Below are positions 9,284 to 58,233 of a stretch of 64,000 nt of DNA, piece after piece (position 1 is the stretch's first letter; each line of letters opens with the position of its first letter). The DNA comes from Acidimicrobiia bacterium (GTDB taxonomy: Bacteria > Actinomycetota > Acidimicrobiia > Actinomarinales > Actinomarinaceae), in assembly GCA_028376655.1 (NCBI GenBank), contig JAONAZ010000002.1, positions 69,029-133,028 of the forward strand. The letters run 5' to 3'. Below the pieces are notes generated by a model. That model was not told the origin of the DNA, did no database searches, and worked only from the letters and a program-made list of their open reading frames with translations. A program made the translations under genes and the position numbers.

Positions 9284-9744
9284 AAATACTTATACCAGGC
9301 TCGTTTGATCCACCAACTAATGGTCATATTGATGTTATAAAAAGATGCTCCAAAGTATTTGACGATGTACTTGTAGGTGTAATAGTAAATCCTTCAAAAA
9401 ATTCATTATTCGCAACAGAAACAAGAGAACTCATGCTTACAGAGATATTTACAGATACAAATAATGTTTCAATCAAGACATTTGAAGGTCTACTTGTTGA
9501 CTTCGCAAAGAATAATGAAGTACAGGCTATAGTTAAAGGACTTAGAGCAATGACAGATTTTGACTATGAGTTCCAGATGGCACAAATGAATTCAAATTTA
9601 GCCGATTTTGAAACAATATTTGTACCAGCTTCTCCTGAATATGGATATGTTTCAAGTTCAATGGTTAAAGAAATAAATTCTTACGGTGGAGATGTATCAA
9701 AATTAGTACCTGAGAACGTTTTAAAAAGGATGAATAATGTCTGA
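9280..9744 (+). CDS. coaD: phosphopantetheine adenylyltransferase
   Basis: PGSFDPPTNGHID (T/HxGH nucleotidyltransferase motif); SSSMVKE. 154 aa. Confidence 0.95.
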   Translation: MKILIPGSFDPPTNGHIDVIKRCSKVFDDVLVGVIVNPSKNSLFATETRELMLTEIFTDTNNVSIKTFEGLLVDFAKNNEVQAIVKGLRAMTDFDYEFQMAQMNSNLADFETIFVPASPEYGYVSSSMVKEINSYGGDVSKLVPENVLKRMNNV

Positions 9745-47764: not shown

Positions 47765-50083
47765 ATGTCCGTAACTAATGTCACTTGTGAAATAGGTGGT
47801 AAAGAAATTAAATTCGAAACTGGGAAATTAGCATTACAAGCTTCTGGAGCAGTAGTCGTAACTTCAGGCGAAACTAATGTACTTGTAACAACTGTAGCTA
47901 ATAAAACAGTACGTGAGGGGATTGACTTTTTCCCTTTAACTGTGGATGTTGAAGAAAGAATGTACGCTGCAGGTAAGATTCCCGGTGGTTTTTTCAGAAG
48001 AGAAGGTAGAGCAACAGAAAACGCTATCTTAGCTTGTAGGTTGATTGATAGACCCTTAAGGCCATCTTTTGCTGATAATTTTAGATGTGAAACACAAATC
48101 ATAGCTACTGTTTTAAGCGTAGATAATGAACATGAATATGATATATTAGCACTAAATGCTGCATCCTTAGGATTGCAATTAGCTGGAGTTCCTTTAGAAG
48201 CTCCTGTAGGTGCTGTGAGAATGTCACTAATTCATGATAAATGGGTTGTACAAGCAACAAGTTCGGAACAAGAAGATTCTGTATTTGATATGGTTGTAGC
48301 TGGTAAATTAAATGATAATAATGAAGTTGATATCGTAATGGTTGAAGCAGGAGCTACAAGTGATTCTTTTGAAAAGATAGATGCTGGTAGTATTGCACCC
48401 TCAGAAAACATTGTTGCTGATGGTATAGACAAATCCAAAGAATATATCTCAGTTTTAATAAGTGCTCAAAAAGAACTTGTTAGTAAAAATGAAGTACCAG
48501 TTGTAGATTGGCCAGTAGTTGAAGACTATACAAAAGAATTAAAAGATAGCCTTGATACTGCTTATAAAACCAAAGTTGAAGATGTAATGAAGATTACTGA
48601 TAGAACTGAAAGAAGTGAAAAGCAAGCAGAACTCCAAGATCAAGCCCTTGAAGAATTTACAAATGAGGAAGCTAATAATGTTAAACCAATAAAACTAGCA
48701 TTTAAATCATTAGTAAAATCAGTCGTTAGAGACAGAGTTATTGCTGGCGGGCCTAGACTTGATGGTCGAACACCTACAGATATAAGAAATATATCAGCAG
48801 AAATTAATCTTTTGCCTATGGTTCATGGATCGTCTTTATTCCTAAGAGGTGAAACCCAAGTTCTTAACGTAACAACATTAGGTATGTCTCGACTTGAGCA
48901 AATGCTTGATACAGTTGATACAGTAACATCAAAAAGATATATGCATCATTATAATTTCCCACCTTATTCAACAGGTGAAGCTTATATGAAGTTTGGACCA
49001 AAAAGGAGAGAAATCGGTCATGGAGCATTGGCAGAAAAAGCAATGATTCCTGTTATTCCTGAAAAGGTTGATTTTCCATACACAATTAGAGTTGTTAGTG
49101 AAGCAATTTCTTCAAATGGTTCCACTTCACAAGCTTCAGTTTGTGCTTCCAGCCTATCATTAATGGCTGCAGGGGTTCCAATTAGGGAACATGTTGCAGG
49201 AATAGCTATGGGTCTTATTTCCAAAGATACTAACTATGTGACATTAACCGATATATTGGGTGCAGAAGATGCACTTGGTGATATGGACTTTAAAGTTGCA
49301 GGTACAAGGGGAGTTATTACAGCTTTACAGCTAGATATGAAAATAGAAGGTTTACCTTCAGATGTACTCAGAAAAGCACTTAATCAAGCTATGGACGCGC
49401 GTCATCATATTTTAGATGTCATGGAAGATGCTATTTCTGAACCAGCTGAAAAATTATCGGGCAACGCTCCTAGGTTAGAAACTGTTGACCTTCCAAAAGA
49501 TAAAATTGGAGAAGTAATTGGACCAAAAGGTAAGAATATCAGAAAAATTGAAGAAGAGACCGGCGTCAGCGTTGAAATTGATGATGATGGTATCTTAACT
49601 CTGGGTTCTACTGAAGAAGAAGGTCTTCAAGCTGCAAAAGAAATGGTCATGTTAATTATTGATCCTCCAGAGGTCAAAGTAGATACAGATTATGATGGTG
49701 AAGTTGTAAGCATTGCAACTTATGGAGCATTTATTAATATCCTACCAGGAAGAGATGGACTACTTCATATTTCCAAATTCCATTCTAAAAAGAGAGTATC
49801 TAATCCTGAGAATATTTTATCTGCAGGCGATAAAATCAAGGTACATGTGGACTCTATTGAAAATGGTAAAGTAAGCCTATCTTTATTAGAAGATCTTGAA
49901 ATACCAGAAGAATCAATCGATAAAGGTGGTTCTAGAAAAGACTCTAAAAGACCAGACAATCGTCGAAATGATCGTCCAAATAATCGAAACAGAAGTGATA
50001 AACCTAGGGATGAAAAACCTACTAATGATTCACCTCAGAGGAAAAGAGTTTCTTTCGAAGACGACTTCGAAAAAGGGATTTAA
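47765..50083 (+). CDS. pnp: polyribonucleotide nucleotidyltransferase (PNPase) with Arg/Asn-rich C-terminal tail
   Basis: Two RNase PH domains (FFRREGR, GDMDFKVAGT), KH (GPKGKNIRKI) and S1. 772 aa. Confidence 0.95.
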   Translation: MSVTNVTCEIGGKEIKFETGKLALQASGAVVVTSGETNVLVTTVANKTVREGIDFFPLTVDVEERMYAAGKIPGGFFRREGRATENAILACRLIDRPLRPSFADNFRCETQIIATVLSVDNEHEYDILALNAASLGLQLAGVPLEAPVGAVRMSLIHDKWVVQATSSEQEDSVFDMVVAGKLNDNNEVDIVMVEAGATSDSFEKIDAGSIAPSENIVADGIDKSKEYISVLISAQKELVSKNEVPVVDWPVVEDYTKELKDSLDTAYKTKVEDVMKITDRTERSEKQAELQDQALEEFTNEEANNVKPIKLAFKSLVKSVVRDRVIAGGPRLDGRTPTDIRNISAEINLLPMVHGSSLFLRGETQVLNVTTLGMSRLEQMLDTVDTVTSKRYMHHYNFPPYSTGEAYMKFGPKRREIGHGALAEKAMIPVIPEKVDFPYTIRVVSEAISSNGSTSQASVCASSLSLMAAGVPIREHVAGIAMGLISKDTNYVTLTDILGAEDALGDMDFKVAGTRGVITALQLDMKIEGLPSDVLRKALNQAMDARHHILDVMEDAISEPAEKLSGNAPRLETVDLPKDKIGEVIGPKGKNIRKIEEETGVSVEIDDDGILTLGSTEEEGLQAAKEMVMLIIDPPEVKVDTDYDGEVVSIATYGAFINILPGRDGLLHISKFHSKKRVSNPENILSAGDKIKVHVDSIENGKVSLSLLEDLEIPEESIDKGGSRKDSKRPDNRRNDRPNNRNRSDKPRDEKPTNDSPQRKRVSFEDDFEKGI

Positions 50084-50599
50084 TTACTTTCTATTTGAAG
50101 TTAAGTTAATAGGACTAGTCGACTCAGTGGTAACATAAGCATCTGGATTTATTGAAGAAACAATATTCAAAACTTGTTTTGCTTTTTTTCTAGGTGCTAC
50201 ACACCACGCTATACTAACTTCACCTTGCATACCTTCACCAGTAATAATTGTTACACCGAATCCTTCTGAACGAAGTTTTTCAGCTACTTTTCTACTATCT
50301 TCATCTTTTGGTGAAAATATTCTGATTACTACATCGCCTATTGCAATTGTTGATTCTATGTAAGATCCTATAATAGTTCCAGAGGCAAATCCAAGTGCAT
50401 AACCTACTACTAGAAAAGGGTCATCTAAGTCTCTAATAACTTGTGATATTGCTACTACCCAAATAGCTGATTCAATAAACCCTAGTGCTGCCCCAAAAGT
50501 TGGTTTTCCTTTATTTACATAAAGTGTTCTTAGTGTGCCTAATGTCTGATCTAGTAGACGAAGTAAAAATATGTAAGCAACAGCTAAAAATACATCCAT
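50084..50599 (-). CDS. UPF0316/DUF2179-family membrane protein
   Basis: N-terminal 3 TM with LLRLLDQTLGTLRT, plus a C-terminal DUF2179-like soluble domain. Its stop abuts the pnp stop. Confidence 0.7.
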   Translation of the reverse strand: MDVFLAVAYIFLLRLLDQTLGTLRTLYVNKGKPTFGAALGFIESAIWVVAISQVIRDLDDPFLVVGYALGFASGTIIGSYIESTIAIGDVVIRIFSPKDEDSRKVAEKLRSEGFGVTIITGEGMQGEVSIAWCVAPRKKAKQVLNIVSSINPDAYVTTESTSPINLTSNRK

Positions 50600-50603
50600 A
50601 AGG

Positions 50604-51335
50604 CTATTGTATTGCTTCTACCATTTCATCGTATACTTTTTTCATTTTCTTATGCGTGTCCGAAACTAGTTGTTCAATATTTTCTTTATTATATTTTGAG
50701 ATGTCTATCGGCTCTAATGTTTTTATCATTGCCTTCCCACTTTGCATAAACTTACTACCTCTTGGCCATATATCTCCAGTCCCTGCAATGACTACTGGGA
50801 GAATTGGAATATTATTGTCAAAAGCAATATGAAAAGCACCACTTTTAAATTTCTTAAAATCATCTTTAGGTACACGAGTTCCTTGTGGGTATACCATTAG
50901 TGACCACCCTTTTTCAAATATTATTTTTGCCTGCTTGTTTATTGAGACCCTATCATTAGGATTATTTCTATCTACTTTTATGAAGTTAAATGCCTTTGCG
51001 GCGGTTCCAAAAAAAGGTAGTTTGTAAACTTCTTTTTTAGCCATGAATACCCATTTAATTTTTAAATATTTGAATTCCATCATTGGATCAAGGTTTGAAA
51101 GATGATTTGAGATTACTACATAGGGTTGATTAGTTTTGTAATCTGTTGTTTTTATGATTTCTAACTTTGCTCTTGCTGCCCACATCCAAGGAATACACCA
51201 GGATTTAGCAATATAATATTTTACTTTTGTATATTTTGCAAAAATACCAATAAACCAGATACTGTAAGCAACTGGAATTGTATAAACTGCCATCAATAAC
51301 ATGTTTGTCCAACTTAATAGTTTATTTTTGAGCAT
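50604..51335 (-). CDS. plsC: 1-acyl-sn-glycerol-3-phosphate acyltransferase family protein
   Basis: HX4D block SNHLSNLDP; YPQGTR block; PILPVV. I prefer the ATG at 51335 to the GTG at 51416, which would overlap the divergent gene by 66 nt. The start remains uncertain. Confidence 0.75.
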   Translation of the reverse strand: MLKNKLLSWTNMLLMAVYTIPVAYSIWFIGIFAKYTKVKYYIAKSWCIPWMWAARAKLEIIKTTDYKTNQPYVVISNHLSNLDPMMEFKYLKIKWVFMAKKEVYKLPFFGTAAKAFNFIKVDRNNPNDRVSINKQAKIIFEKGWSLMVYPQGTRVPKDDFKKFKSGAFHIAFDNNIPILPVVIAGTGDIWPRGSKFMQSGKAMIKTLEPIDISKYNKENIEQLVSDTHKKMKKVYDEMVEAIQ

Positions 51336-51350
51336 GTATCTAATACTATA

Positions 51351-51887
51351 TTGAATATCAATAGAAAAGAAACCGTGTTCAAGAAAAATATAATAAGACG
51401 TAACCTTCTTAATCACAATTTCCGCAATGTAGAACTTTCTGATGATATTTCAAATATATTTTATGAGTTAGTAAATGGCAAGATAATCTGTACATACATT
51501 CCCATTTCTTCGGAAATTAATGTACTACCAGCATTATCAAGCAGTATATTTTTAAATACAACCTTTGTTGATGGTGAAAATTTACAAATTTGTACATATT
51601 CTGAACCCTTTATTGAAAATAAATTTGGAGTGTTGCAACCAAAAATCCTGACACCAAACTTTGATACAGAAGTGTTTATTGTCCCCGGAGTCGGATTTAC
51701 AAAATTTGGAGATAGATTGGGTCGTGGTGGCGGTTATTATGATGCTTTACTTAAAGAAAACTCAGAGGCTTTAAAAATCGGGATTTGTCATGATTTTCAG
51801 TTAGTCGACGAATTACCAATTGAAGAACATGACATTGCTATGGATTATGTTTTCACTGATAAAAATTATTACAAATCATCAATATAG
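51351..51887 (+). CDS. 5-formyltetrahydrofolate cyclo-ligase
   Basis: VPGVGFTKFGDRLGRGGGYYD and EEHDIAMDYV motifs. 178 aa. TTG start. Confidence 0.8.
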   Translation: MNINRKETVFKKNIIRRNLLNHNFRNVELSDDISNIFYELVNGKIICTYIPISSEINVLPALSSSIFLNTTFVDGENLQICTYSEPFIENKFGVLQPKILTPNFDTEVFIVPGVGFTKFGDRLGRGGGYYDALLKENSEALKIGICHDFQLVDELPIEEHDIAMDYVFTDKNYYKSSI

Positions 51888-51899
51888 TATTCTTATTAC

Positions 51900-52940
51900 A
51901 TGGATTTAAGCATAAACGTTGGATATTTTGGTCCTCATATTTCAGATGATCATGACCTAATCAAGAAATTAGATGAAATGGATTTTGCCTGTATATGGAC
52001 AGCAGAGGCTTACGGATATGATGCTGTTACTCCTCTATCCTATTTTTCAGCAATTACTAAAAATATAAATATTGGTTCAGGAATTATGCAGATTCCGGGT
52101 AGAACTCCTGCAATGACCGCAATGACCGCAATAACTCTTGATAAGCTTTCAAATGGTAGATTTAGACTTGGACTTGGAGTATCTGGACCCCAAGTTGTAG
52201 AGGGTTGGCATGGACAGCCTTACTCAAAACCATTATCTAGAACAAGAGAATATATAGAAATAATAAGAAAGATATTTCAGAGGGAGAATAAGGTAGTTTT
52301 TGATGGTGACTTTTATAACCTTCCTTATAATGGTCCCGATTCTTTGAATCTTGGTAAACCACTAAAACTTATTGAGCAACCTTTAAGAAGCAATATACCT
52401 ATTTACCTTGCAGCTATTGGACCAAAAAATATTGAGTTATCTGCTGAAGTTGCTGATGGTTGGTTACCATTCATGTACTCACCAACTAAGGGGGACATAG
52501 TTTTTAAAGAATATCTTAAAAAAGGATTTGAAAAATCCGGAAACCCCAATAAGGAAAAAGAATTTAATATTGTTGCAACTGTATTTGCAAGATTATGTGA
52601 AGAACATGAGGTTGAAGATTTCTTAAGACCAGCCAGAACAAGTTATACTTTATATGTTGGAGGTATGGGTGCTAAAGACAAAAATTTCTATTTTAATCTT
52701 ATGTGCGAGTACGGTTATGAGAAAGTTGCTACTGAAATCCAGAATTTATTTCTAAGTGGAAGAAAACAAGAAGCAGAGGAATTATTTCCTGAAGATTTAC
52801 TTAGAGATTTAACCCTTGTCGGCACAAAAAAAGATATTCAAGAAAAACTAAATCATTGGAAAGACTCTAAGGTAACAGAGCTATCTTTGTCATTACCAAT
52901 TGATATTCCAACATTAGAACTTATAAAAGAATTAAATTGA
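51900..52940 (+). CDS. luciferase-like monooxygenase (LLM) family, F420-dependent oxidoreductase class
   Basis: 346 aa TIM-barrel LLM pattern (FACIWTAEAYGYDA, SNGRFRLGLGVSG, LVGT..DIQEKL). The F420 class is inferred from actinobacterial context and the cofGH genes in the window. Confidence 0.7.
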   Translation: MDLSINVGYFGPHISDDHDLIKKLDEMDFACIWTAEAYGYDAVTPLSYFSAITKNINIGSGIMQIPGRTPAMTAMTAITLDKLSNGRFRLGLGVSGPQVVEGWHGQPYSKPLSRTREYIEIIRKIFQRENKVVFDGDFYNLPYNGPDSLNLGKPLKLIEQPLRSNIPIYLAAIGPKNIELSAEVADGWLPFMYSPTKGDIVFKEYLKKGFEKSGNPNKEKEFNIVATVFARLCEEHEVEDFLRPARTSYTLYVGGMGAKDKNFYFNLMCEYGYEKVATEIQNLFLSGRKQEAEELFPEDLLRDLTLVGTKKDIQEKLNHWKDSKVTELSLSLPIDIPTLELIKELN

Positions 52941-54280
52941 AGATTTTACTGCTTTCTTTTTATGATCTTGGGAAACAGCCAAAGATAATTTCGGAACTTC
53001 ATCAAAAACTTAGTAATGGTACAAACCAAATTGATATTGTCGATTATTCTATTGAAGAGAAATCTCTTGTATTAACTGACTACGATGCACTTGGTGTATA
53101 CGCTTCAATGCATACAGCTTCCGTACTAGCAGAAGAGTTCTTGCGTGGTAAACGCTTGCCAGATAAATTATTTGTTTTTGGACTTTATGCAAAAGTTTTC
53201 TCAGAAATCTATAGTAATTTTAATATAATTCAAAATTTTGAAAGTGAAGATTTAGAATCATTATTAAAAGTGAAACTAAATAGTGAATATTCTTTCAAAC
53301 ACTCAGTGCCAGATAGGACAGTGCTTCCCCCTATTACTGATTATTCTCATATTGTTGATGGTTCAAATAATTTAATAGCAGGATCAGTTGAAACAACATA
53401 TGGTTGCAAACATGAGTGCACCCATTGTCCTGTACCTATAGAATTTAAAGGCATGTTTAAAACATTTGGAACAGAAAAAATTGTCCAAGACGTATCCAAC
53501 CAAGTTGAAGCTGGTGCAAAGCATATTTCATTTAATGATCCAGACTTTTTCAATGGTCCAAAACATGCTTTAAAAATTTTAGAATTACTTAATAGTAAAC
53601 ATCCGAAAATAACCTATGACTCTACTATCAAAGTTGAACATATACTAAAATATCCACAATATTTTCAGGAGCTTAAAGACCTAAACATGCTTTTTGTTAT
53701 CTCAGCATTTGAAACAACTAATGATCAAGTCCTTACTATTCTTAAAAAAAATCATACGGCTGATGATTTAAAAAGTGCTGTCGAATTGTCACTAGAAAAT
53801 AGTATAGACATAAGGCCCACTTGGATGCCATTTAGTCCTTGGACTGAAATCAAAGACTTAATAAATATTATTAATCTCATAGAAAATTACAAACTTAGAG
53901 AAACGGTTGCTCCAATACAGCTAACAATAAAACTACTGATACCAAAAAACTCCCTGATATTATCAAGCAAGGAAATGAATCCATATGTTGGAGATTTTGA
54001 TCCTACGTCTTTTTCTTATCAATGGAATTATCACAATCCAGAAATTGACACATTACAAAAACAACTATTTAAATATGTTCTAGATAATGAATCTATTGAT
54101 GAATATGAACAATATTTAGGATTGGTAGATATTGTTGAATCCCACACAGGTGTATCACTTATTAAAGATGCTGAATATATTAAAAGATCTGTACCCAAAC
54201 TTTCAGAAACCTGGTTTTGCTGTTCTGAACCAAATAAAATACAACTCGATAGAATAAAATCAAACAAGGCATTGATATGA
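52937..54280 (+). CDS. radical SAM enzyme with Rossmann/B12-binding-like N-domain and vicinal-Cys CCSEP tail (CUAEP/CCAEP-tail family-like)
   Basis: CKHECTHCPV (CxxxCxxC). Tail WFCCSEPN (TGC TGT at 54218-54223). No SPASM Cys. ATGA-type overlaps with both neighbours. Confidence 0.7.
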   Translation: MKILLLSFYDLGKQPKIISELHQKLSNGTNQIDIVDYSIEEKSLVLTDYDALGVYASMHTASVLAEEFLRGKRLPDKLFVFGLYAKVFSEIYSNFNIIQNFESEDLESLLKVKLNSEYSFKHSVPDRTVLPPITDYSHIVDGSNNLIAGSVETTYGCKHECTHCPVPIEFKGMFKTFGTEKIVQDVSNQVEAGAKHISFNDPDFFNGPKHALKILELLNSKHPKITYDSTIKVEHILKYPQYFQELKDLNMLFVISAFETTNDQVLTILKKNHTADDLKSAVELSLENSIDIRPTWMPFSPWTEIKDLINIINLIENYKLRETVAPIQLTIKLLIPKNSLILSSKEMNPYVGDFDPTSFSYQWNYHNPEIDTLQKQLFKYVLDNESIDEYEQYLGLVDIVESHTGVSLIKDAEYIKRSVPKLSETWFCCSEPNKIQLDRIKSNKALI

Positions 54281-54783
54281 CAAATATTTCAAATGAAGAA
54301 TTGAATGTAGCAACATGGAAAATTCCAAGTCCTTTAGGAATAATAGGTTCTGGTGCGGATGTTGAATATAACGGAATGACTGCTAGTTGGATTACTCAAA
54401 TAAACATGAACCCACTGCTTATAGCTGTAGGTATTGACAATAAGAGCGTAACTCATAAATTAATGTCAGATAGTGAGTATTTTACGATTAATTTATTTTC
54501 TGAAAAGTACACAAAGGTATTTGTTAAATTTTCAAAACCTGCAGTGTACACAGAGGGCTTTTTAAACAAGGAACCCATAACTCTCACTGAAAACAATGTT
54601 CCAATATTTGATAATGCTCTTGTGTGGTTTGAACTTAGAAAAAAGAATGTACACGATTACGGGACACACACTCTCTATATTGGTGAAGTTGTAGATTGTA
54701 AAACAATGGAAACTGATGAACGTATTGCCTATATGGGGGATACAAGGATGAAATATGGAGGTGTGCCTAGAGGTGGGCACTAG
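54277..54783 (+). CDS. flavin reductase-domain protein (FMN-binding split barrel)
   Basis: GMTASWITQINMNPLLIAVGI, HTLYIGEVV. 168 aa. Confidence 0.75.
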   Translation: MTNISNEELNVATWKIPSPLGIIGSGADVEYNGMTASWITQINMNPLLIAVGIDNKSVTHKLMSDSEYFTINLFSEKYTKVFVKFSKPAVYTEGFLNKEPITLTENNVPIFDNALVWFELRKKNVHDYGTHTLYIGEVVDCKTMETDERIAYMGDTRMKYGGVPRGGH

Positions 54784-54805
54784 ATATAATGTCTAATCTC
54801 TATTT

Positions 54806-55495
54806 ATGAAAAAATATTTATTTTTTATAATTTCTAATTTTTTACTTTTTTTTATATTTCCCATAATTCGGCTATTAAGTAAAAAGTTTTATGAAAAAAG
54901 AATTCTTCCTCATCTTATAAATATGACATGTAGTTCCAAACCTATACAAATCCAAAAGAAGAAAATAATACCAAATGCGTATGGCAAGGTCCTTGAAATT
55001 GGTTTTGGATCTGGTGTAAATCTTAAGTTATATAATGATGAAAATGTTGAAAAAATCTACGGTATAGATCCTTCTCAGGAATTACATGTTCTTGCTTATG
55101 AAAATGCAAAATCTGTAAATATACCAATAGATTTACAGATAGGCAGTGCTGAAGAATTACCATTTGAAGATAATAGGTTTGATACTGTTGTTAGTACTTA
55201 CTCTCTATGTTCGATACCCAATCCGGAAATTGCTCTTGATGAAATTTCTCGGGTGCTAAAGTCTTCTGGTAAATTTTACTTTGCAGAACATGGCTTATCA
55301 TCTGACACTAGAGTTGCTAACTTTCAGAATTTCATTGAGTTCTTTTATCCTAAAATATCAGGAGGATGTCATGTAAACAGAGATATCCTTAAGTTAATCA
55401 ATAACAGTGAATTGGAATTAAAAGTTAGTCAAAGTATGTATCTACCTGGTACTCAGAAATTTCTTGGTTTTAACAGTTGGGGGACTGCTGGTTAA
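54806..55495 (+). CDS. class I SAM-dependent methyltransferase with N-terminal membrane anchor
   Basis: TM helix at residues 4-24; motif I VLEIGFGSGVN; post-I IDPS; FDTVVSTYSLC. 229 aa. Confidence 0.75.
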   Translation: MKKYLFFIISNFLLFFIFPIIRLLSKKFYEKRILPHLINMTCSSKPIQIQKKKIIPNAYGKVLEIGFGSGVNLKLYNDENVEKIYGIDPSQELHVLAYENAKSVNIPIDLQIGSAEELPFEDNRFDTVVSTYSLCSIPNPEIALDEISRVLKSSGKFYFAEHGLSSDTRVANFQNFIEFFYPKISGGCHVNRDILKLINNSELELKVSQSMYLPGTQKFLGFNSWGTAG

Positions 55496-56388
55496 TCAAT
55501 AACGCTTAATATGGCTTCAACACACTCTTGAGGTTTATCCTCTTGCAGAAAGTGTCCAGCATCTTTGATTACAACATGATTCATTCCATCTGCTCCAGGT
55601 ATGTGTTTGATAAATGAATTTTCTACACCTTTGAAGATATGATCTTTATCACTAAAAGCACACAAGAAAGGTTTTCCCCATTTTTTTAATTCTTTCCAAG
55701 CTTCTACGTTATGGGCGTAACTTGGATTATTAATACTATCTGGTACCAGTAATGGAAATTGTCTTGCAGCTTCCTTGAACGAATCATCCGGAAATGGTGC
55801 ATTATATGCATCTATAGTTAATTGATCTAATTCACTTACGCTTCCACCTTTAACTATTCCTCCAATATGAAAATTCTCCACAGTCTGAGAATAATTTCGC
55901 CAAGATTCAAAGGCTTCTCCAAGGGGTCTTTCACCAGTTGGTAATCCAGTATTAGAAACAACTACACTACTAAATCTTTCTTGATTCTTTACAACTAACC
56001 TTAAGCCAATCAGCCCACCCCAGTCTTGACCAAAAAGAGTTACGTGACTTAAATCTAGGTTATTCAACCAAGTGTTCATCCAATCAACATATTTTTCATA
56101 AGTGTATCCATTACGTTCAGAAAGCTTATCTGACTTCCCGAAACCAGGTAAATCTGGAACAACTACTCGCAAACCGTTGGCTACTAATGGATCTACAAAT
56201 TTTCGATATAAATATCCCCAGGTAGGTTCACCGTGAAGTAGTAAAACTGTTTTGGCATTTTCTGATCCTTCATCAATATAATGAATATTTAATTCCCCAT
56301 ATTCAGTATTTATGGGTTCGAATTTTGGTTCATACTTCCAATCAACTATCTCTGTAAAATCGGTATCTTTATTTCTAAGTATTTTCAT
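55492..56388 (-). CDS. haloalkane dehalogenase (HLD-I, DhlA-like alpha/beta hydrolase)
   Basis: LLLHGEPTWGYLYRKF, nucleophile elbow GQDWGG (Asp), C-terminal DAGHFLQED. 298 aa. Confidence 0.75.
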   Translation of the reverse strand: MKILRNKDTDFTEIVDWKYEPKFEPINTEYGELNIHYIDEGSENAKTVLLLHGEPTWGYLYRKFVDPLVANGLRVVVPDLPGFGKSDKLSERNGYTYEKYVDWMNTWLNNLDLSHVTLFGQDWGGLIGLRLVVKNQERFSSVVVSNTGLPTGERPLGEAFESWRNYSQTVENFHIGGIVKGGSVSELDQLTIDAYNAPFPDDSFKEAARQFPLLVPDSINNPSYAHNVEAWKELKKWGKPFLCAFSDKDHIFKGVENSFIKHIPGADGMNHVVIKDAGHFLQEDKPQECVEAILSVID

Positions 56389-56397
56389 ATTGCTATC

Positions 56398-56913
56398 TTA
56401 CAGGTTGTGGATAACGTTTGTAACAACACCCCAGATATATGCTTCACTATCATCATTAATAACAATTGGGTCAAAAGAATCATTCTCAGGCTTCAATAAG
56501 ATATTCTTTCCTTTTTTAACATATCTCTTAACAGTAAGCTCACCATCAACAACGGCAATGACTACTTTTCCATTTTCTGCTTTTAAACTCCTATCAACAA
56601 CAAGTATGTCTTTTGGAAAAATACCTGCATTGATCATAGACTCTCCAGACGCCCTAACGAGAAATGTGGATGCAGGATGTTTTACAAGATACTGATTGAG
56701 ATCTACTTTGTCTTCCAGGTAGTCATCTGCAGGAGAGGGGAATCCAGCCGAGACGCTATTTGTATATAAAGGTATTTCATAGAGACCTTTGTTTACAATT
56801 TCCGAGACATAGTCAACTTTGCTTAAAGGTATCCTCATGGCAGTAGTTTTTTCTCCATACTTGCCAAGACCCTTAGGCCTTCCAGCTCCTTTTCTCGCAC
56901 CACCTCTAGGCAT
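56398..56913 (-). CDS. umuD: UmuD-like S24 self-cleaving peptidase with extended basic N-terminal arm
   Basis: SVSA/GFPSPADDY cleavage region, ASGESM (Ser nucleophile), VDGELTVKRY (Lys). No winged-HTH. I prefer the ATG at 56913 (MPRGGARKGAGRPKG) to the TTG at 56955. Confidence 0.75.
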   Translation of the reverse strand: MPRGGARKGAGRPKGLGKYGEKTTAMRIPLSKVDYVSEIVNKGLYEIPLYTNSVSAGFPSPADDYLEDKVDLNQYLVKHPASTFLVRASGESMINAGIFPKDILVVDRSLKAENGKVVIAVVDGELTVKRYVKKGKNILLKPENDSFDPIVINDDSEAYIWGVVTNVIHNL

Positions 56914-56935
56914 AAAATGTCTTTCTTTTTCTTTA

Positions 56936-56953
56936 GAATAGTGTACAGTATTC
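56936..56953. promoter_or_regulatory. near-perfect 18-bp palindrome (candidate operator) between divergent umuD-like and umuC
   Basis: GAATA-G-TGTACA-G-TATTC, 16 of 18 positions self-complementary. Ends 2 nt before the umuC SD (AAGGAG, 56955-60). Confidence 0.5.
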
Positions 56954-56967
56954 AAAGGAGTAAGTGA

Positions 56968-58233
56968 ATGAACAATAAAATTTTTGCCTTAGTTGACTGT
57001 AACAACTTTTACGCTTCCTGTGAGCGTGTCTTCAATCCTAAATTAGAAGGAAAGCCCATTGTGGTACTTTCTAATAATGATGGATGTATTATTGCGAGAT
57101 CAAACGAGGCAAAAGCTTTAGGTATCCCGATGGGAGCTCCATTTTTCAAATACGAGCAGCTTATCAATAGAAACAACGTTCATGTATTTTCATCAAACTA
57201 CACCTTTTATGGAGACATGTCTGCACGAGTAATGACCTCATTAAAATCATTAGTTAATGAAATAGAGATTTACTCTATTGATGAAGCATTCTTAGATATA
57301 AGTAGCTTTGCTTATTGTGATCTTGAAGACACAGCAAAAGAAATTAAAAATCTAATCAAACAATGGACAGGAATACCGGTTTCCATAGGGATAGGATCTT
57401 CAAAAACACTAGCAAAAATTGCAAACAGGCAGGCAAAAAAAAATACATTAGAAAATGTATTTGATATAAGAGATTTAGAAGTTAGAGAAAATATATTAAC
57501 AGAGCTTCCAATAGAAGAAATATGGGGAATCTCAACAAGGTGGGGCAGGAGGTTGAGAAAAATTGGTATTGAGACGGCACAGGACCTAGCAGAGGCAAAC
57601 CCAAGACATGTGAGAAAGACAATAAGCATTGTAGGGGAGAGAATCCATTATGAGTTGAATGGTTTATCCTGCATAGGAATAGAAGAAGTCAAAAATAAAA
57701 AAAGTATCATCTCATCAAAATCATTTGGAAAAAAAGTTTATCAAGTGCAAGAGCTAGAAGAAGCAGTGTCAAACTATACAGCACGGGCATGCGAAAAATT
57801 AAGACAACAAAATTCAAGGGCACAAGGATTGTATGTATTTTTAAGAACAAGTCCACACACAGAAAAGGATAAACAGTACAGCAATGGTATGAGTGTTCAT
57901 TTCTCTATTCCAACAAGCAATACTTCAAAAATAATAAAAGAAGCAAAAAAGCTTACAAATAAATTATTTCTACCAGGATACGAATACCAGAAAATTGGAG
58001 TGATGCTTTTGAACATTTCAGATGCAAAAAATGAACAAGGTAGTTTTCTAGATAATGAAAACTATAGCAAATCAGACACAATTATGAAATCTCTAGACAC
58101 AGTGAACAAACAGTTTGGATCAGGTTCATTGACGCTTGGGGCACAAGGTATACAAAAGAATTGGAGAATGAGAGCAGACAGAAAGTCTGGAGCCTATACG
58201 ACAAATCTTAAAGACTTACCGATTGTTAAGTAA
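56968..58233 (+). CDS. umuC: Y-family translesion DNA polymerase, UmuC (Pol V catalytic subunit) type
   Basis: FALVDCNNFYASCERVF, VVLSNNDGCIIARS, SIDEAFLD, SKTLAKIAN. 421 aa. Confidence 0.9.
   Translation: MNNKIFALVDCNNFYASCERVFNPKLEGKPIVVLSNNDGCIIARSNEAKALGIPMGAPFFKYEQLINRNNVHVFSSNYTFYGDMSARVMTSLKSLVNEIEIYSIDEAFLDISSFAYCDLEDTAKEIKNLIKQWTGIPVSIGIGSSKTLAKIANRQAKKNTLENVFDIRDLEVRENILTELPIEEIWGISTRWGRRLRKIGIETAQDLAEANPRHVRKTISIVGERIHYELNGLSCIGIEEVKNKKSIISSKSFGKKVYQVQELEEAVSNYTARACEKLRQQNSRAQGLYVFLRTSPHTEKDKQYSNGMSVHFSIPTSNTSKIIKEAKKLTNKLFLPGYEYQKIGVMLLNISDAKNEQGSFLDNENYSKSDTIMKSLDTVNKQFGSGSLTLGAQGIQKNWRMRADRKSGAYTTNLKDLPIVK

Follow-up and report, generated by a model that had tools for sequence, protein, structure and literature searches.

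A radical SAM protein with a Cys-Cys tail in Candidatus Actinomarina is probably an ArsL-like enzyme at a variable locus

The window examined here, a 64-kb stretch of Candidatus Actinomarina DNA (32% G+C), holds four co-directional genes for an LLM-class oxidoreductase, a radical S-adenosylmethionine (SAM) protein, a flavin reductase-like protein and a membrane-anchored SAM methyltransferase. The original prediction for this DNA took them for one self-contained pathway. We argue that they are one accessory combination at a variable spot and not a dedicated pathway, and that the radical SAM protein is probably an ArsL-like enzyme that alkylates a soft atom. Judged by its sequence, it adds a divergent member to a catalogued, functionally uncharacterised family with a C[C/U][A/S]EP tail, a sister family of ArsL. 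No new pathway should be claimed from the four-gene locus. The interest attaches to the family of the radical SAM protein, which is large, consists to about a quarter of selenoproteins and is related to ArsL. The presence of a member in Actinomarina, among the most streamlined and abundant of the marine actinobacteria, suggests a useful function in the oxic surface ocean.

The radical SAM protein and its family

The features that had been read from the sequence of the radical SAM protein are borne out: a single CKHECTHC motif, no SPASM or twitch cysteines, no DxHxxG, a Rossmann-like N-terminal domain and a WFCCSEPN tail (Table 1). Homologs start at the same residue, in one case with ATG, which supports the TTG start. 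There are only five cysteines in total (157, 161, 164, 428 and 429), so a SPASM or twitch set is not possible. C157, C161 and C164 are invariant in an alignment of 40 sequences. The N-domain is Rossmann-like and by its motifs carries no sign of cobalamin binding, since neither DxHxxG nor a PF02310 match was found in the protein. According to a 2026 review, cobalamin is likewise not bound by the Rossmann-like domains of AprD4 and the ArsL homologs (PMC12931638). An AlphaFold2 model has a pLDDT of 94.3 (82-90 in the tail) and a pTM of 0.92. Its best Foldseek matches among solved structures are AprD4 (6fd2, TM-score 0.65), then OxsB, MgmA and TsrM, and the likeness is at the level of architecture. 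A sequence search turned up no close solved structure, and no ArsL structure is available.

The best NCBIfam match is NF040546, the CUAEP/CCAEP-tail family, with 375.3 bits (E 4e-112) over profile positions 1-467 of 468. The curated cutoff is 500 bits, so the NCBI pipeline would not give the protein this name. The guess that it belongs to this family, which was to be checked by a hidden Markov model search, is thus upheld by the best-scoring model, the tail motif and a tree, and falls short only at the cutoff. The shortfall is not peculiar to the window protein, because other tail-bearing clades also score 395-453 bits. Close homologs from Actinomarina reach 365-373 bits, and the core members of the family 565-620. 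The second-best model is NF040542 (ArsL), with 204.3 bits over residues 122-379 only, which does not reach its cutoff of 450. A true RCCLKC-tail protein scores the other way round, with 656 bits on the ArsL model and 345 on the CUAEP model. BLASTP of the window protein against an ArsL-type RCCLKC-tail protein gives an alignment of 407 aa at 27% identity that takes in the N-domain (E 5e-45). In a neighbour-joining tree with four RCCLKC-tail proteins as the outgroup, the Actinomarina clade falls inside the tail-bearing family as the sister of L006 and L007, two Acidimicrobiales-like metagenome-assembled genomes (MAGs), and the ArsL-type proteins stay outside.

The family is large. A relative of the radical SAM protein is encoded in at least 584 of 600 pattern-matched stretches from a collection of species-representative genomes. 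For comparison we used the loci of the 80 best relatives in other species, all outside Actinomarinales (L006-L085); the MAGs that hold them bear the labels of many different phyla. Together with Actinomarinales loci that makes 85 tails, and the extended motif P.L[ST]E.W[FY]C[CU][AS]EP..Q is present in 85/85, with the window tail matching it. This recurrence is far more than chance. C428 is invariant in the alignment of 40 sequences, and for E424 and W426 conservation is 90% or more. The serine of the window tail (CCSEP) in place of alanine is also found in 12 loci outside Actinomarinales, mostly labelled Acidimicrobiia or relatives.

The vicinal pair C428-C429 is encoded TGC TGT at 54218-54223. 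Outside Actinomarinales the pair reads CC in 59/80 loci and C-TGA in the other 21/80. In the latter the AEPT..Q frame continues past the TGA, which makes the second tail residue a selenocysteine site. The original prediction had expected selenocysteine at the first cysteine of the pair; it replaces the second (C-U-A-E-P). The in-frame TGA and the selenocysteine insertion sequence (SECIS) element that were to be sought in orthologs are found in so far as 21 loci carry the TGA and a hairpin follows it, one codon later than foreseen. These loci are L022, L028, L029, L035, L039, L041, L045, L049, L056, L057, L060, L062, L069, L071, L072, L074, L076, L077, L079, L082 and L083, with the tail region near position 9300-9400 in the full-length ones. 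Many database proteins end exactly at ...W[FY]C.

The RNA sequence downstream is consistent with this. When the 60 nt from the second codon of the pair are folded and compared with shuffled sequence, the median z is -0.85 in the TGA loci vs +0.35 in the Cys loci (Mann-Whitney p = 3e-7), so excess stability is seen only where there is a TGA. A 6-bp hairpin with an AGUU-type loop begins 16 nt after the start of the UGA, and 5/6 of its pairs show compensatory changes. It resembles a bacterial SECIS element. NF040546 is one of the rare CU-motif proteins listed by Haft and Gwadz, who argued that motifs of this kind contact heavy-metal atoms.

The neighbours of the family offer another line of reasoning. 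By clustering of open reading frames (ORFs), the dominant neighbour across phyla is a same-strand ORF of about 420 aa that lies directly beside the radical SAM gene in 41/80 loci, or 38/66 when only loci with at least 1.5 kb of flank on either side are counted. It encodes an ATP-grasp protein of the L-amino-acid-ligase (LAL) type, with PF13535 and PF18603 (for example L007:6679-7965); its best NCBIfam matches are weak and include BacD and DdaF. One protein of 850 aa, P0220, is a natural fusion of the LAL-type ATP-grasp to the radical SAM protein. We found no description of this pairing in the literature searched. In an Acidimicrobiia-type subgroup the radical SAM gene has a divergent alpha/beta hydrolase, AceE, an ABC transporter and PlsB beside it instead of the ligase. 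The window contains no LAL ATP-grasp, DUF169 or ABC partner. It does have an alpha/beta hydrolase near its radical SAM gene, of a different subfamily from the one found beside the gene in 13 loci of the Acidimicrobiia-type subgroup. We do not accept the two as orthologs, since they share 26% identity and the likeness is at superfamily level only.

The remaining flanks were surveyed with Pfam, taking the first non-ligase ORF on each side (150 flanking ORFs from the 80 loci). The commonest are NifU-like proteins (12), followed by alpha/beta hydrolases (8), YggX (6), ABC ATPases (6), aconitase (5), DUF169 (4), DUF971 (3), IscA-type proteins (2), peroxiredoxin (2) and thioredoxin (2). Genes related to Fe-S biology are found repeatedly next to the ATP-grasp and radical SAM pair (L006-L082) in MAGs that carry the label Actinomycetota (Acidimicrobiia and relatives) or Chloroflexota. 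They may reflect cluster maturation or a redox role.

A small clade of the family carries an additional domain. A MerB-like (alkylmercury lyase) domain follows the CCAEP tail in five clusters at 90% identity (P0162, P0390, P0391, P0392 and P0393), and the C-x-x-D and FCS catalytic signatures are kept. One such fusion (L095:4792-6921) lies amid genes for a P450, an AMP-binding protein, PhyH and a sulfotransferase, in what resembles a natural-product cluster. An unfused relative of the MerB-fusion proteins (L096) adjoins a gene for a MerR-family regulator. No MerB-like domain occurs in the 80 loci or in the window.

Proposed alkylation of a soft atom and the redox alternative

By sequence comparison ArsL is the closest characterised relative of the window protein. 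The [4Fe-4S] cluster of ArsL reductively cleaves the C-gamma-S bond of SAM to give methylthioadenosine (MTA) and a 3-amino-3-carboxypropyl species, which becomes bonded to As(III). Its C-terminal cysteines bind As(III) and are required for product formation, not for SAM cleavage. A variant of the ArsL tail with two cysteines is active on methylarsenite. Besides TsrM, ArsL is the sole radical SAM enzyme of canonical motif and fold reported to work without a 5'-deoxyadenosyl radical.

We argue that the window protein most likely acts in the manner of ArsL, moving an alkyl group from SAM onto a soft atom that its Cys-Cys tail holds. We infer this from the ArsL-like architecture, the amino-acid ligase that partners the family and the MerB-like fusion clade. 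How SAM is cleaved, what the tail does and which atom accepts the alkyl group are all drawn by analogy. In this scheme a [4Fe-4S] cluster on CKHECTHC would reductively cleave SAM. The flexible tail, through Cys428-Cys429 (Cys-Sec in about a quarter of orthologs), would bind a soft atom, be it a metalloid, a metal or a chalcogen, and deliver it to the active site. There the atom would be alkylated by the SAM-derived group. If that group is 3-amino-3-carboxypropyl, as in ArsL, then MTA would be released and the product would resemble an amino acid. The product of the family is probably an amino acid, because the LAL-type ATP-grasp is adjacent in 38/66 loci and fused in P0220. In most other bacteria the adjacent or fused ligase would then ligate this product, and the Actinomarina locus would do without that step.

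One can imagine a larger scenario, which we offer tentatively as a possibility. The C[C/U][A/S]EP-tail proteins might be a second and far more widespread ArsL-type family, which transfers aminocarboxypropyl onto a tail-held soft atom and passes the product to the LAL ligase to make a dipeptide, with Actinomarinales lacking the ligase. If this is true, the soft atom on the Cys-Cys or Cys-Sec tail would be As, Se, S or Hg, and the outcome would be a new heteroatom amino acid and then a dipeptide. The abundant Actinomarinales of the ocean surface would run a ligase-free version, possibly with the F420-type LLM enzyme encoded upstream. The ligase partner and its fusion, the MerB-like fusion clade and the covarying hairpin after the UGA make the chemistry of the family testable.

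It must be noted that several points weigh against an ArsL-like role. The homology to ArsL is moderate. The window tail has two cysteines (WFCCSEP, with Cys-Sec in some orthologs) and not the three of RCCLKC, and it follows an extra helical hairpin of about 35 residues. The tree that makes ArsL the outgroup is without bootstrap. No function for the CUAEP/CCAEP-tail family was found in the literature. Nor do the papers surveyed report a sequence determinant that separates C-gamma-S from C5'-S cleavage of SAM. The survey of flanks in the 80 loci contains no ars, mer or selD genes (and no LLM or flavin reductase families either), and the NifU-like, YggX, aconitase and IscA-type genes in it may instead be a sign of Fe-S or redox biology. 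There are likewise no ars, mer or selD genes next to the radical SAM gene of the window. Arsenic is thus without contextual support, and we do not adopt it as the specific acceptor.

A serious alternative is that the protein is a canonical enzyme of the 5'-deoxyadenosyl-radical kind and that no aminocarboxypropyl is transferred. The vicinal Cys-Cys or Cys-Sec tail would then serve as a redox shuttle, much as the GCUG tail of thioredoxin reductase does; it would provide a hydrogen atom or reducing equivalents and bind no metalloid. Selenocysteine in place of cysteine is typical of redox-active sites. AprD4, the best structural match, is a 5'-deoxyadenosyl-radical diol dehydratase with a cobalamin-free Rossmann-like N-domain. 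Genes for Fe-S and oxidative-stress functions are over-represented in the flanks, and no arsenic or mercury resistance genes are nearby. However, the ArsL model scores 204 bits on the protein and the AprD4 model only 15.5, and the identity to AprD4 in the Foldseek alignment is 12%. For the ArsL tail, substrate binding and not a redox function has been shown. The MerB-like fusions suggest carbon-metal chemistry, and the LAL partner fits an amino-acid product. We therefore consider the redox shuttle unlikely, and prefer the alkylation of a tail-held soft atom.

The locus in Actinomarinales

The four ORFs of the original prediction are all found at the positions that it gave, with two 4-nt overlaps (TTGA at 52937-52940 and ATGA at 54277-54280) and a 22-nt gap (54784-54805). 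The partner families also come out as named, with matches to TIGR03559, PF01613 and Methyltransf_11. The methyltransferase does have a membrane anchor, to judge by hydropathy, in one N-terminal hydrophobic segment at about residues 4-25. No precursor peptide gene is present, the 22-nt gap being the sole intergenic space in the unit, and this is consistent with a role outside ribosomally synthesised and post-translationally modified peptides, as had been proposed.

Table 1. Coordinates of the four genes, their immediate neighbours and the parts of the radical SAM protein
Feature	Position	Strand	Evidence
5-formyltetrahydrofolate cyclo-ligase (MTHFS)	51351-51887	+	TIGR02727, 97 bits (cutoff 85)
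LLM-class oxidoreductase, 346 aa, Rv3520c-type, predicted F420-dependent	51900-52940	+	TIGR03559, 412 bits (cutoff 335); PF00296
Radical SAM protein, 447 aa, TTG start	52937-54280	+	NF040546, 375 bits
N-terminal Rossmann-like (B12-binding-like) domain, ~aa 1-120	52937-53300	+	Foldseek architecture
CKHECTHC, CxxxCxxC motif for the radical SAM [4Fe-4S] cluster, aa 157-164	53405-53428	+	
Conserved C-terminal tail PKLSETWFCCSEPNKIQL, aa 420-437	54194-54247	+	
Flavin reductase-like protein, 168 aa	54277-54783	+	PF01613
Class I SAM methyltransferase, 229 aa, N-terminal hydrophobic anchor	54806-55495	+	PF08241 (Methyltransf_11)
Alpha/beta hydrolase, haloalkane dehalogenase type, 298 aa	55492-56388	-	NF002043, 391 bits (cutoff 265)

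The order of genes was compared with that in other Actinomarinales loci (L001-2, L003-5, L086/87, L092 and L093/94). There is a conserved backbone, RibF-S15-PNPase-(DUF5698)-(PlsC)-MTHFS-LLM on one side and (S24 peptidase)-Y-family polymerase on the other, where PNPase is polynucleotide phosphorylase. The MTHFS gene precedes the LLM gene in every locus examined, and the LLM gene is at the identical spot in all of them, with or without the radical SAM gene. All of the content between the LLM gene and the S24 peptidase gene is variable. In the window the LLM gene is followed by the genes for the radical SAM protein, the flavin reductase, the methyltransferase and the hydrolase. In L003-5, with a radical SAM protein 79% identical, the methyltransferase is absent and the order is radical SAM, flavin reductase, hydrolase. 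In L001-2 (60% identical) it is radical SAM, flavin reductase, peroxiredoxin (AhpC), arylsulfotransferase, SBF transporter, methyltransferase and hydrolase, which puts the methyltransferase of L001 3 kb away. L086/87 have only the flavin reductase and methyltransferase genes, with no radical SAM gene and no space for a remnant of one. L092 also lacks it and has flavin reductase, peroxiredoxin (AhpC), methyltransferase and hydrolase. L093/94 have the radical SAM gene only, and flavin reductase and methyltransferase are absent. The hydrolase gene is missing from L086/87 and L093/94. At this one syntenic spot, then, the LLM, flavin reductase and methyltransferase genes each occur without the radical SAM gene, and the radical SAM gene occurs without the last two.

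The same four genes were sought in the 80 loci outside Actinomarinales with tblastn, using the LLM protein, flavin reductase, methyltransferase and hydrolase as queries. No homolog of the first three adjoins the radical SAM gene in any of the 80 species; the only matches to the four queries are two weak ones to the LLM protein, 4-7 kb away. In other lineages neither a flavin reductase nor a radical SAM gene lies near LLM homologs of 50% identity.

We propose that accessory genes have been gained and lost singly downstream of the conserved LLM gene in the streamlined genomes of Actinomarinales. The accessory set would comprise genes for the radical SAM protein, flavin reductase, methyltransferase and alpha/beta hydrolase, to which some relatives add those for a peroxiredoxin, an arylsulfotransferase and a transporter. 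Set against L001, L003, L086, L092 and L093, the stretch from the LLM gene to the S24 peptidase and Y-family polymerase genes (51900 to about 56400) has the look of a small flexible hotspot, whose cargo takes in peroxiredoxin, arylsulfotransferase, SBF-family transporter and DUF1214/DUF1254 genes.

Spacing does not speak for a unit either. Among the co-directional neighbour pairs of the window the gap is zero or less in 29/56, an exact 4-nt overlap in 9/56 and at most 25 nt in 42/56. Tight packing of the four genes is the norm in this genome and not distinctive, and we reject it as evidence for one unit. The gene calls behind these statistics are crude, and those of the high-GC loci were made heuristically, which is a point against us. 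The MTHFS gene is co-directional and its stop is 12 nt upstream of the LLM gene, so spacing alone cannot delimit a unit of four. At the other end the hydrolase gene is convergent with the methyltransferase gene and overlaps its stop by 4 nt. A sequence scan of 50500-57000 found no terminator-like site, and promoter-like matches there are no more than a shuffle would give.

Another possibility is a partnership of two genes. The LLM enzyme and the radical SAM protein may be partners specific to Actinomarinales, with flavin reductase and methyltransferase optional, where the F420-dependent LLM enzyme and not an ATP-grasp ligase processes the radical SAM product or supplies its substrate. The start of the radical SAM gene overlaps the LLM stop by 4 nt in all four Actinomarinales lineages that have it, so that a looser link between the two is conceivable. 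The overlap holds among radical SAM proteins 58-79% identical, even where every other accessory gene is gone. Actinomarinales make F420 (PMC7771536), and the window has no LAL ligase gene. Yet the LLM gene persists intact, at 69-70% identity, where there is no radical SAM gene, so it is not dependent on it, which argues against an obligate link. Its homologs in other lineages have no radical SAM gene nearby, and no radical SAM homolog among the 80 outside loci has an adjacent LLM gene. Insertion right after a backbone gene, together with the genome-wide habit of overlaps, explains the adjacency without any shared function. We regard the two-gene partnership as distinctly unlikely, and the single gain and loss of accessory genes as the better account.

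The four-gene pathway of the original prediction, in which redox, radical and methylation steps would act on a small lipophilic molecule, is now very improbable. It could call on the shared direction of the genes, their overlaps and short gap, the lack of a terminator-like site and the order LLM, radical SAM, flavin reductase, which is kept with both overlaps in the relatives whose radical SAM proteins are 79% and 60% identical. But conserved order within Actinomarinales carries little weight, because the unrelated genes for PNPase, PlsC and MTHFS are equally syntenic. The co-conservation on which the pathway had been staked is not found in related genomes. The methyltransferase is missing in L003-5 and 3 kb off in L001, the radical SAM gene is missing in L086/87 and L092 with the other three intact, and flavin reductase and methyltransferase are missing in L093/94 with LLM and radical SAM intact. 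This mosaic of presence and absence, together with the lack of these three partners near the radical SAM gene in 80 other species, leaves a self-contained pathway unsupported.

The members of the combination can be considered one by one. The LLM protein is a backbone protein of Actinomarinales and plausibly F420-dependent, since these bacteria synthesise the cofactor; FMN-type LLM models score 20-26 bits on it vs 412 for TIGR03559. It may form a pair with the flavin reductase, because the two genes are directly adjacent in L086 and L092. The flavin reductase is dispensable, being absent from L093/94, which have the radical SAM gene, and from beside the more distant LLM homologs. The methyltransferase has weak NCBIfam matches far below the cutoffs (PmtA with 58 bits, UbiE, ArsM-type). 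We reject it as an ArsM, since NF008823 gives 41 bits against a cutoff of 263 and the gene is not conserved beside the radical SAM gene. In loci with both, the methyltransferase gene accompanies the gene for the convergent haloalkane-dehalogenase-type hydrolase and not the radical SAM gene.

Some observations concern the neighbours. The longest ORF for MTHFS, with a TTG start, overlaps the start of a divergent PlsC-like acyltransferase ORF (50604-51416, GTG) at 51351-51416. MTHFS homologs are called at 169-191 aa and PlsC homologs at 186-244 aa, shorter than the window ORFs, so the true starts of both are probably internal. The polynucleotide phosphorylase (47765-50083, +) has a C-terminal tail of about 55 residues after its S1 domain that is rich in Arg, Asp, Asn and Lys. 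Beyond the hydrolase, an S24 peptidase (LexA/UmuD-like, 185 aa; 56398-56955, -) is divergent with a Y-family DNA polymerase (56968-58233, +). This pair is kept in all Actinomarinales loci seen, and the polymerase has IMS, IMS_C and DUF4113 in the relatives.

Comparison with known systems

The LLM and flavin reductase genes recall the two-component systems of the SsuD/SsuE or HpaC type, in which an LLM monooxygenase works with a PF01613 reductase. LLM-fold and PF01613 genes occur together here, and are adjacent in L086 and L092. However, the LLM protein of the window belongs by its model match to the predicted F420-dependent Rv3520c subfamily (TIGR03559) and not to a family of FMNH2-dependent monooxygenases. 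The reductase is also absent beside LLM homologs outside Actinomarinales and in L093/94.

AprD4, OxsB and the TsrM-type enzymes share the order of a Rossmann or B12-binding-like N-domain followed by a radical SAM core, and they are the best matches to the model of the window protein. The identity is only 10-15%, these enzymes have no Cys-Cys tail, and the window protein has no cobalamin-binding motif.

The NF040546 family is closer. The window protein has its single CxxxCxxC, its Rossmann-like N-domain and its extended tail. It differs in that the tail reads CCSEPN rather than CCAEPT, and in that its gene lacks the usual LAL ATP-grasp neighbour and sits after an LLM oxidoreductase gene.

ArsL is the natural reference among characterised enzymes. 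The window gene has no ars operon context (no ArsM, ArsQ or ArsR). What the two proteins share is the architecture as a whole: a Rossmann-like N-domain, a CxxxCxxC core and a Cys-rich C-terminal tail.

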